Shown here piece after piece: positions 23,985-36,219 of a DNA stretch of 64,000 bases. The notes below the pieces were generated by a model that saw only the letters and a program-made list of their open reading frames with translations, was not told the origin of the DNA and searched no databases. Made by a program: the position numbers and the translations under genes. Each line of letters opens with the position of its first letter. The first letter of the stretch is position 1. This DNA is from a phage. The stretch is taken from the sequence record PQ724393.1; one strand, 5' to 3'.

Positions 23985-24273
23985 ATTTTTTCCAGTCAGA
24001 AATCATATGAATCTCTTGGTCATACGTCAAGAGACTGCGAGTAATAATACCCTTGCACGGCCCAGAGATGAACTCGAGAGTGAAGTAAGGAACCTGTTTC
24101 ATTAATCGGATGCTTGGGGCATGGCATCTAAAACGAGAGCCCTTAAAGGGCCCTGACATGAATACATATTCTAATGGATAGAAATAAGCATATTCGAAAT
24201 TTGCAGTAAGGTCCTCTCTTCGAACCTTACGTGAGAAATAACAGAACTCAAAAAGTTCTTCATCAGTCATCAT
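23977..24273 (-). CDS. Hypothetical protein (98 aa)
   Basis: ORF. Confidence 0.4.
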   Translation of the reverse strand: MMTDEELFEFCYFSRKVRREDLTANFEYAYFYPLEYVFMSGPFKGSRFRCHAPSIRLMKQVPYFTLEFISGPCKGIITRSLLTYDQEIHMISDWKKYV

Positions 24274-24797
24274 TGCATTCCTATCACAAAGAACAGCGGC
24301 AGAGGTTTAGAACCCTGGCACATAAATTTGTTAATCATTACCTGGTAAGCTTCATAGAACTTATCCATCGATGGAAGGCGCATTGGCTCTTCGATAATAA
24401 TCAATAATCGAGTAACTGATAGACCACGATACTTATGGAAGTTATCTTCGTCTAAAAATGATCGCACGGTATCATATACAATAAACCCAGGACCTTCTAC
24501 TTGAAGATGTGGATGAGCCTTAGAAACCCTTTTTATTACATTACAGATTTCGCGTGACCGGTGCGAAGAACTCGACATAACAATCACATCATTACCCTTG
24601 GAAACCCAATCAGCTGCGAACTGGGCAAGGGCACTTGTTTTACCTGTTTGGCGTCCGCCGTCAAGTCGAAGAGTACCAAACTCTTGCATTCTTGAAGTAG
24701 GTTCGTACCAGGTGTATTGGTTTGAGTCTAATCGTTCAATGGCGCGTTCAGCGAAGGCGTGCATTAAGGTTAGATAAATGGGAGTTAAAAATTTCAT
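24270..24797 (-). CDS. Small P-loop NTPase-like protein (175 aa)
   Basis: Walker A GGRQTGKTSA, Walker B-like LLIIIEEP. Confidence 0.5.
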   Translation of the reverse strand: MKFLTPIYLTLMHAFAERAIERLDSNQYTWYEPTSRMQEFGTLRLDGGRQTGKTSALAQFAADWVSKGNDVIVMSSSSHRSREICNVIKRVSKAHPHLQVEGPGFIVYDTVRSFLDEDNFHKYRGLSVTRLLIIIEEPMRLPSMDKFYEAYQVMINKFMCQGSKPLPLFFVIGMQ

Positions 24798-24946
24798 AGT
24801 GGTCTCTTAGTTGTGGGGCCATTCCTTGGCACATAATTCATCCCTTTCTGCATTTACCCATTACCGCACTTGGGCTCGACCTTATTACAGGTTGGTGGGA
24901 GTCCCTCACGGAATTGTGAGGTCCAGGTTGCTCCCATTTTTAAAGA

Positions 24947-25306
24947 TTAAAGATGGTCGAGTGCCGGATTATGAGGCTTTTCTGCTTTAGCAGTATTTTT
25001 GTGCCAATCCGATTTAGAAACACGAATTGCATCCGCACCGTAAGAGCTCTTAAGGAGGCCCTTTTTATTGTAAACACTTATAGAAGTAAGGGTGTCACCA
25101 TTCCAAGTAGCATGGACGAAGTTGGATTTAGATTTAAGTTCTTTAGCCAGGCTCTGGTTGGTAGCCATAGAAGCAAAGTCTTTACCTGTAACTTTAAAAA
25201 CTTCAGATGGGTTCAGCCCTTCTTTAGCCTTAGCCAATTGTTCAGGAGACATAGCTTCGTTAATGCGCTGAGTAGATTCAGTAATAAATTGTTGGTAAGT
25301 TTTCAT
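24947..25306 (-). CDS. Internal-protein-like head protein with capsid targeting sequence (119 aa)
   Basis: N-terminus MKTYQQFITE-S matches the T4 IP capsid targeting sequence ([10 protein letters not shown], prohead protease cleavage after Glu of [IL]-x-E). Confidence 0.6.
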   Translation of the reverse strand: MKTYQQFITESTQRINEAMSPEQLAKAKEGLNPSEVFKVTGKDFASMATNQSLAKELKSKSNFVHATWNGDTLTSISVYNKKGLLKSSYGADAIRVSKSDWHKNTAKAEKPHNPALDHL

Positions 25307-36062: not shown

Positions 36063-36137
36063 TGGTATCCCGCCCTGGGATCGAACCAGGACCGCAAACT
36101 TAGAAGGATCGTATGCTATCCATTACACCAGCGGGAC
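36063..36137 (-). tRNA. tRNA-Arg (anticodon UCU)
   Basis: Minus-strand GTCCCGC...CCTTCTAAG...GGTTCGATCCCAGG-GCGGGAT-A-CCA; anticodon loop CUUCUAA, T-loop, encoded CCA. Confidence 0.75.
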
Positions 36138-36142
36138 ATAGT

Positions 36143-36219
36143 TGGTGACCCGGACCAGATTTGAACTGGTAACCTTTCCCTTATGAGGGGACTGCTGCTA
36201 ACCATTGAGCTACAGGGCC
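36143..36219 (-). tRNA. tRNA with CAU anticodon (Ile2-type or Met)
   Basis: GGCCCTG...anticodon loop CUCAUAA...AGTTCAAATCTGGT-CCGGGTC-A-CCA; T4 encodes a tRNA-Ile at the corresponding position. Confidence 0.7.

Follow-up and report, generated by a model that had tools for sequence, protein, structure and literature searches.

A non-coding gap between an internal-protein gene and vs.8

What occupies a 149-nucleotide (nt) gap, with no evident gene of its own, between two co-oriented genes of a T4-type phage? The question is raised by positions 24798-24946 of a 64,000-nt stretch of the phage record PQ724393.1 (hereafter the window), which belongs to the Dhakavirus/JS10 group and has its best matches in Ec2-ASingh, WG01, and JS10. 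The gap separates an internal-protein-like (ip-like) gene from a homologue of vs.8, both on the minus strand, and an initial annotation had singled it out for a nested hairpin that is followed on the plus strand by a short T-run, offering a small RNA, an antisense terminator, or the remnant of a mobile element as explanations. To judge from the sequence comparisons reported here, the gap holds a real, widely conserved, and unannotated structured RNA element that is present in T4 itself. We consider it likely that this element functions as a structured RNA on the minus strand, and on balance probable that it belongs to an unannotated, widely distributed family of structured phage RNAs whose interior is recognized by a shared host factor. 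That the element acts in trans or via a host factor is, taken separately, a tentative proposal that falls somewhat short of an even chance.

A near-invariant core closed by a covarying helix

The highest conservation in the gap lies not in the nested hairpin (hereafter P0) but in a 37-nt core located 3' of it on the minus strand (Table 1). The small-RNA option of the initial annotation is thus borne out insofar as a structured non-coding element is present, whereas the most conserved part of that element had been missed. The core is identical to that of T4 at 36 of 37 positions, as compared with 57% identity for the vs.8 coding sequence (CDS) and 92% for denV, a contrast that indicates purifying selection on the core. 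A covariance model (R1) matched 24843-24905 on the minus strand with 77 bits (E = 3e-19), and the next best match anywhere in the 64-kb window reached 12.8 bits, so the element is present there in a single copy.

That the core is closed by a helix, which we call Px, emerged from alignment A3, in which 31 distinct sequences represent at least six phage lineages (including T4-like, rV5-like, PsgM04F-like, Karam/Winklervirus, and EcoPhCCP1). In the window, Px consists of the pairs A24893-U24860, C24894-G24858, C24895-G24857, and A24896-U24856, with G24859 bulged, and across the 31 sequences these pairs occur, in the same order, as AU/UG/UA/CG/GC, CG/UA/GC, CG/GC, and GU/AU/GC/UA, i.e., with compensatory changes at four pairs and up to five pair types at a single pair. 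The helix is wholly replaced in Winklervirus and Karamvirus (CUGG.U / A.CCAG), and in EcoPhCCP1 it reads CGCGG / C.CGUG. The covariation score of Px was 0.285 versus 0.088 in shuffles (0 of 500 shuffles reached 0.285) and at most 0.085 for slid partners, with the caveat that the independent lineages are few and that the shuffle control ignores phylogeny. An unbulged register of Px scored below the bulged one and was set aside.

Table 1 Features in and around the gap, with positions in the window
Feature	Position	Strand	Basis or remark
Near-invariant 37-nt core AACCUGUAAUAAGGUCGAGCCCAAGUGCGGUAAUGGG	24893-24857	-	Sequence conservation, covariance model
Core domain closed by helix Px, ~41 nt	24856-24896	-	Covariation in alignment A3
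Candidate hairpin P1, ACCU-GUAAUA-AGGU	24879-24892	-	Predicted; stem invariant
Junction segment CGAGC(CCAAGU)GCGGUAA, 18 nt	24861-24878	-	Predicted fold
Nested hairpin P0	24896-24936	-	Inverted repeats, minimum free energy (MFE) fold, 14-sequence alignment
T-run, five T	24937-24941	+	Equals an A-run 5' of P0 on the minus strand
Variable linker, form-A type	24835-24855	-	Unrelated sequence in form B; ~2 nt in Mosigvirus EP32B
Second conserved box AUGUGCCAAGGAAUGGCCCC (AUGYGCCAHGGAAYGGCCC)	24834-24815	-	Specific to T4-like phages; 5' of the ribosome-binding site of the next gene
Internal-protein-like gene, 119 amino acids (aa)	24947-25306	-	phrog_3966; MKTYQQFITE leader
vs.8 homologue	24270-24797	-	phrog_1488; annotation of JS10 and T4; next gene 3' of the element in nearly all T4-like phages
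Shine-Dalgarno-like AAGAG (24804-24808) and vs.8 start codon (24795-24797)	24795-24808	-	Direct reading, list of open reading frames (ORFs)
27-aa ATG ORF MGATWTSQFREGLPPTCNKVEPKCGNG	24854-24937	-	Spans hairpin and core; intact in the window phage only

Within Px, the interior is predicted to consist of a hairpin, P1, and a junction segment. In the P1 loop, the first G and the last A are invariant and variation is confined to positions 2-5, and a pattern scan in which P1 was left free found no member with an altered stem. An alternative ACC/GGU pairing with 24863-24865 may compete with P1. In the junction segment, the flanking CGA and GGUAA are invariant, while every substitution observed in alignment A3 either maps to the proposed hexaloop or is compatible with G-U pairing, and the segment may form a two-base-pair mini-hairpin (GC/GC; mini-P2) with a variable hexaloop. 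The MFE helix of the core (G18-A20/N38-C40) was rejected because A20:N38 would be an A-C mismatch in roughly one sequence out of three. Short resemblances of GCGGUAAU to the 16S ribosomal RNA (rRNA) 530 loop, of GUAAUA to the loop of 23S rRNA H44, and of CGAxCxCAxAGUG to 5S rRNA helix III were dropped as being at chance level; the P1 loop bases are variable, and scanning the gap with Rfam gave no match to an rRNA model.

Hairpin P0 and the transcribed strand

The nested inverted repeats that had drawn attention to the gap were found as described: in P0, an outer stem pairs TGGGAG (24896-24901) with CTCCCA (24931-24936) and an inner stem pairs CCTCAC (24904-24909) with GTGAGG (24916-24921), with the loop AAUUCC at 24910-24915 and an internal loop, CAACCUGGA, at 24922-24930. 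The plus-strand TTTTT next to it is likewise present. Folded alone, P0 has an energy of -16.9 kcal/mol (z = -2.15), which 4 of 200 shuffles equaled, and it is compensatory change in relatives, rather than stability, that places P0 beyond chance. Among 14 distinct relatives with the same type of hairpin (form A, see below; alignment A2), 97% of cells are paired, three pairs show compensatory changes (A-U to G-C, C-G to U-A, and U-A to C-G), and a U-G pair closes the outer stem in 11 and occurs in the inner stem in 3. These U-G wobbles pair on the minus strand only, since on the plus strand they become A-C mismatches. The T-run is missing altogether from T4, which reads TAAGGGAAC there, and is variable in other relatives, and a scan of 24798-24946 on both strands called neither a promoter nor a terminator. 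Taken together, the compensatory changes, the strand-specific U-G pairs, the unconserved T-run, and the lack of a called terminator or promoter imply that the structure has been selected on the gene strand.

P0 resembles intrinsic (Rho-independent) terminators in that, on one of the two strands, a GC-containing hairpin stands beside a T-run. On the minus strand, which is the transcribed one, however, the hairpin is followed by CCAACCUG / CCAACCUGUAAUAAGG instead of a U-tract, and an intrinsic terminator on that strand, of which none was called, was therefore rejected.

Distribution across phages

Matches to the 181-nt element region were found in 974 phage records, and a 40-nt query that spans the core matched 1061 of 50,697 phage records (~2%); the annotated feature beneath the match was mostly "none." The initial annotation had regarded missing conservation among relatives as grounds for dismissing the gap, and these grounds fall away because the gap is kept in ~1000 phage genomes. 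Most genomes have one BLAST place per record, i.e., the element is single-copy apart from local duplications, and the core is always co-oriented with adjacent genes, promoters, and transfer RNAs (tRNAs). Nearly all carriers infect Enterobacteriaceae. BLAST searches of 5,426 complete E. coli genomes with the core, on both strands, returned no match, which leaves host mimicry or an antisense target in the host unsupported. Pattern matches in bacterial genomes and several metagenomes were judged to be chance because they are without the AACCUG (5') half.

Beyond T4-like phages, the carriers are rV5-like, PsgM04F/DE16-like, and Pylas-like phages together with phages or contigs of 44-48 kb. The core lies ~0.5 kb upstream of a tRNA cluster in rV5-like Vequintavirinae, in the rV5-like contig L011 with a near-consensus sigma-70 promoter on either side (11/12 and 10/12 matches), inside the tRNA cluster in the ~150-kb group of PsgM04F, DE16, and phiWec188, and right after the endolysin gene in the 44-kb siphovirus EcoPhCCP1; the 70-kb Klebsiella phages Pylas and KpCHEMY26 carry it as well. 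Same-strand tRNA genes are located within ~1.3 kb of the core at 15 of the 17 evaluable non-T4 loci, and no vs.8 homologue was found near the non-T4 copies. In Pylas, one of the tRNAs called by ARAGORN carries the amber-reading anticodon CUA, and its calls in Pylas-like and rV5-like loci include tRNAs whose anticodons have four bases (gtac, atcc), of which one is annotated as tRNA-Lys in GenBank (L008 9535-9610; L022 4505-4594; L021 2501-2599; L062 2579-2677).

The contigs of 46-48 kb carry the element as a unit within an RNA array that is driven by a promoter (L012 1721-2620; also L007, L010, L014, L019, and L030) and whose units are bounded by GUGCUCUUWYCGUUGUGR ... YCACAAC..AACAGGUAAGAGCAYUG stems. 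The unit preceding the element (L012 1737-1844) contains a tag frame, GCAAACGAAGAAATGTATCTGGCAGTAGCCTAA (ANEEMYLAVA*), like that of transfer-messenger RNA (tmRNA); it scored 26 bits with the Rfam model tmRNA_permuted, whose gathering score is 47, and was not called by ARAGORN. The unit following the element has T-arm-like hairpins, after which come tRNA-Arg(UCU) and tRNA-Met(CAU). No array unit is in Rfam, and these findings suggest that many phage tRNA islands hold further unannotated structured RNAs, the tmRNA-like unit included. Like rrn-type operons, in which boxA antitermination is combined with flanking processing stems, the array forms lie in untranslated multi-RNA transcripts with tRNAs and are bounded by a long imperfect stem; the 5' strand of this stem, GUGCUCUUU/A, appears to resemble the boxA consensus. 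The window copy, by contrast, has neither a bounding stem nor a boxA-like sequence and lies in an mRNA between two translated genes.

A sister array unit that is distinct from the core is 95% identical to the pR'/qut-to-holin (S) leader of the P22-like phage HK620 (L039; AF335538 15992-16103, L039 2501-2612), and the same unit was seen in ZCEC13-like 48-kb phages. This similarity suggests that late-leader RNAs of temperate phages might belong with the array units.

Proposed function

In the window phage, the element RNA is predicted to be made within the ip-to-vs.8 message and to fold into a lineage-variable P0, a ~41-nt core domain closed by Px, and a second box that is confined to T4-like phages; it might also be trimmed out of the ip-vs.8 transcript. 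The element would act as RNA and not through DNA, serving as a decoy or recruiter or being processed into a stable RNA. Most likely, its invariant interior would serve as the recognition surface for a conserved host factor. This factor would be common to the hosts because the core is shared by phages that have no common flanking genes but largely enterobacterial hosts, and it would probably be tied to translation or tRNA metabolism, or to a defense targeting them, because the non-T4 copies sit in promoter-driven arrays of stable RNAs (tRNAs and the tmRNA-like unit). A bolder proposal, which we regard as possible and rather unlikely as it stands, is that the core represents a new compact class of functional RNA, either a decoy or aptamer for a host factor (of the translation/tRNA machinery or of anti-phage defense) or a small ribozyme, that has been independently kept or exchanged by at least five unrelated lineages of enterobacterial phages, T4 included. 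The T4 genome is among the most thoroughly studied, and a non-coding domain that is much better conserved than the adjacent genes points to a shared RNA-host interaction. Because the locus is defined to the nucleotide, the element is directly testable in T4 genetics.

Several results weigh against the interpretation of a shared RNA with a host-recognized interior. Beyond the reservations on the covariation of Px given above, the stem of P1 never varies, so that covariation speaks neither for nor against it, and the fold of the interior as a whole (P1 and mini-P2) is a prediction rather than a demonstrated structure because the interior is nearly invariant. RNAalifold, applied to the array forms, favors a competing helix, CUAACCUG/CNNGGUUAG; we rejected this helix, whose single variable pair is uncompensated in the array forms, whereas Px is compensated. 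The 149-nt gap as a whole is no more stable than its shuffles (z = +0.09 on the minus strand and -0.43 on the plus strand). By eye, a pseudoknot joining the loop of P0 to the 3' tail that follows Px looked promising in EcoPhCCP1, rV5, L011, and the array forms; when RNAduplex was compared with shuffles, it was supported in one of ten lineages, EcoPhCCP1 (p about 0.002), with a marginal value for rV5 (0.06) and nothing for T4 or the window. Furthermore, one carrier was reported on Pseudomonas, and in every T4-like phage a gene follows directly on the element, an arrangement that would also suit a cis-regulatory role.

Alternative explanations

Such a cis-regulatory role is the main rival. The element would then be part of the 5' untranslated region, or an intercistronic element, of vs.8 or an ip gene, acting as a translational operator, a riboswitch-like sensor, or a determinant of processing or stability, and this we judge unlikely on its own, though it deserves more weight than any other alternative and is compatible with a role in trans or via a host factor. 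It draws on the observation that, in the T4-like genomes examined, the element is always followed immediately by vs.8 or an ip gene, on the second box near the Shine-Dalgarno (SD) sequence that is specific to T4-like phages and may serve such a role, and on P0 starting 1-10 nt past the upstream stop codon, as a stabilizer of an mRNA 3' end would. However, an identical core occurs where no ORF follows (between the rV5-like promoters and in tRNA arrays), the downstream gene varies between vs.8 and ip, the non-T4 copies have no vs.8 homologue nearby, no SD- or AUG-sequestering alternative pairing is conserved, and no Rfam riboswitch matched. The features expected of a riboswitch are likewise divided, with an aptamer-like core and covarying closing helix on the one hand and mixed downstream contexts (vs.8, ip genes, a promoter, tRNAs) on the other. 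Related to this is the idea of a catalytic or ligand-binding RNA, i.e., a new class of self-cleaving ribozyme or of aptamer that processes RNA arrays or senses a metabolite, for which the invariant interior, the freely covarying closing helix, the variable hairpin loops, the junction-like layout, and the location of the core in multi-RNA precursors needing processing all speak. We nevertheless consider it improbable, given that no Rfam 15 ribozyme or riboswitch matched at E<=10, that no cleavage-site signature could be named, that no consistent gene association points to a ligand, and that the pseudoknot is without statistical support.

The remaining explanations place the conserved sequence at the level of DNA or on the other strand. 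It could be a recombination cassette of the PeSL type, with the conserved sequence as a homology patch for shuffling ip and accessory genes, an explanation that we rate as doubtful and only slightly ahead of a ribozyme or aptamer. In the PeSL/PmSL cassettes of T4-like phages (Arbiol 2010; Comeau 2014, PMC4122927), a PeSL is defined as a stem-loop with a directly downstream sigma-70-like early promoter, TTTACW-N17-TAYWAT, dispersed in multiple copies (PMC4122927). Like these cassettes, the element has a stem-loop in a hyperplastic region near ip genes, at the boundaries of indels or replacements, followed by an SD sequence and a start codon; homology breaks at 24935, the 5' edge of P0, two copies surround an ip gene in Jiaodavirus, some copies are chimeras of a form-A 5' part with a form-B or Karam-type 3' part, and in form-B relatives a promoter-like TTTACA-16-AATTAT after the core resembles the PeSL layout (PMC4122927). 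Unlike PeSLs, which are dispersed repeats, the element occurs only once in the window, and neither there nor in T4 does it carry a promoter-like site; it also possesses a 37-nt invariant core with a covarying closing helix that is absent in PeSLs. Moreover, compensatory changes and strand-specific G-U pairs are unexpected for a homology patch in duplex DNA, and the conservation reaches unrelated phage families, where shuffling of the T4 type is irrelevant. Non-autonomous mobile DNA, similar to miniature inverted-repeat or palindrome-associated transposable elements (MITE/PATE-like) or to single-stranded DNA hairpins, would explain the conservation by recent horizontal spread, and could account for near-identical sequences in unrelated phages and for the imperfect inverted repeats bounding the array forms. 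It is very improbable in view of the missing copies in E. coli genomes, the single copy per genome apart from local duplications, the fixed position across at least eight T4-like genera, the constant co-orientation with transcription, and the lack of any transposase or target duplication seen; selection rather than recency is indicated because the flanks and the closing helix have diverged while the interior stayed fixed. Of the mobile-element remnant suggested initially, what survives is that the 5' edge is a recombination or module boundary, while neither mobile machinery nor host copies were found. The least probable of all is the intrinsic terminator, or end of a small antisense RNA, on the plus strand. 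The hairpin is followed by TTTTT in the window, and the plus-strand fold of the gap is slightly more stable than the minus-strand fold (-42.2 versus -36.2 kcal/mol), but relatives do not consistently keep the T-run, the U-G pairs of the hairpin would be A-C mismatches on that strand, no terminator was called, and near the gap the plus strand has no promoter and no gene in need of termination, so this part of the initial annotation does not hold, and the T-run is incidental. A DNA-only recombination site, a mobile remnant, and a plus-strand terminator are thus each weakened by covariation, orientation, and copy number, and are disfavored.

Known RNA classes and prior descriptions

Rfam 15 yielded no family matching the element in the gap, either at the gathering threshold or at E<=10, and the only match in the window at E<=10 was SAM-II, which lies outside the gap (15.8 bits versus a gathering score of 44). 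The element in related loci gave no Rfam match either (five loci at gathering, three at E<=5). ARAGORN found no tRNA or tmRNA in the gap, and no model of the tRNA clan matched even at E<=10. In the part of the literature that was covered, no earlier account of the element turned up under its sequence, its locus, or its topic.

T4 produces two stable RNAs from its tRNA region, RNA C and RNA D (species 1 and 2), whose roles are unknown, and no riboswitch or trans-acting small RNA has been functionally characterized in T4 (PMC3014915). The non-T4 copies of the core resemble RNA C and RNA D in being located in tRNA-linked RNA arrays. There is no sequence similarity to these RNAs, however, and the element of T4-like phages lies outside the tRNA cluster, between denV or ip and vs.8; identity with RNA C or RNA D was rejected, since the lone T4 match lies between denV and vs.8.

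Variants among T4-like phages

In T4-like phages, where the element is always 5' of vs.8 or an ip gene, three types of 5' module precede the core. Form A has the nested hairpin (window, T4); form B, which is present in JS10, Mosigvirus, Jiaodavirus, Kanagawavirus, Moonvirus, Karamvirus, and Winklervirus, comprises a longer region whose start, AACCUGGACCUC, as seen in the last two, is common to form A; and EP32B has no recognizable module. Form A and form B, as well as the short EP32B form, have the second box, which is absent from the rV5-like and array forms and ends 7-20 nt ahead of the SD sequence of vs.8 or the ip gene. A GCCA/UGGC hairpin within it was considered and rejected, as a U-to-C change is uncompensated. 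In form B, as in JS10 (L001 3134-3161, minus strand), the promoter-like site noted above is of the T4-early type and follows directly after the core, whereas none was found in the gap of the window or T4 copy.

Recombination between these modules is evident in RPN187, where a form-A 5' part is joined with the 3' part of form B, and the Klebsiella phage pzk-kv4 (Jiaodavirus; L052 125-161 and 648-684) has copies on both sides of its ip gene, the second being a chimera of a form-A hairpin and a Karam-type 3' strand in which Px is unable to pair. Some Karamvirus-like contigs (L070, L073) contain a tandem second copy ~120 nt downstream. Between the window and VR5-type relatives, homology ends at 24935; given this break and the recombining modules, the element is also a module boundary.

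The T4 copy occupies 64,819-64,938 of the record, directly after the denV stop codon, and is the sole T4 match. It is hidden within a CDS because the T4 annotation (NC_000866) places vs.8 at 64253-64912 (L002 1527-2186), with a start ATG inside the P0 loop. The resulting 44-codon extension is closed by a stop in the frame of the window and is unconserved, and the conserved start of vs.8 reads MRTFLTGPY / MKFLTPIY. The true T4 start is thus probably ~132 nt downstream (MRTFLTGPY), the reference beginning 44 codons too early.

Neighboring genes and minor features

The minus-strand order around the gap is nudE, e (lysozyme), ipIII, denV, the ip-like gene, the gap, the vs.8 homologue, and vs.7. 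Both flanking genes agree with their earlier description as an internal-protein gene and a P-loop gene, with the qualification that matches of the vs.8 homologue to P-loop/AAA proteins are sub-threshold only; no informative relative of vs.8 was found in Pfam, NCBIfam, or PDB. The ip-like gene is an insertion between denV and the element, which adjoin directly in VR5-type relatives and T4.

The gap had been described as free of ORFs. Mechanically, ORFs of 23-59 aa do cross it (e.g., on the minus strand the 27-aa ATG ORF and on the plus strand a 59-aa TTG ORF, 24811-24990), but none is conserved: in T4 and most of the relatives, the 27-aa frame either lacks its ATG or meets a stop after seven codons, and the 27-, 23-, and 59-aa ORFs are all broken or startless in T4, VR5-type, and other relatives, so no small protein gene was found.

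A 12-nt imperfect inverted repeat (83% complementary) links 24875-24886, including GGUCGAG of the core, with 24950-24961 in the last codons of the ip-like gene (CUCGACCAUCUU); it is probably due to chance because this upstream gene is missing from relatives. The only tRNA genes that ARAGORN called in the window, tRNA-Met(CAU) and tRNA-Arg(UCU), are adjacent to each other at 36063-36219 on the minus strand, 11 kb from the element, and are the same pair as that found 3' of the element in most of the 46-48 kb contigs.

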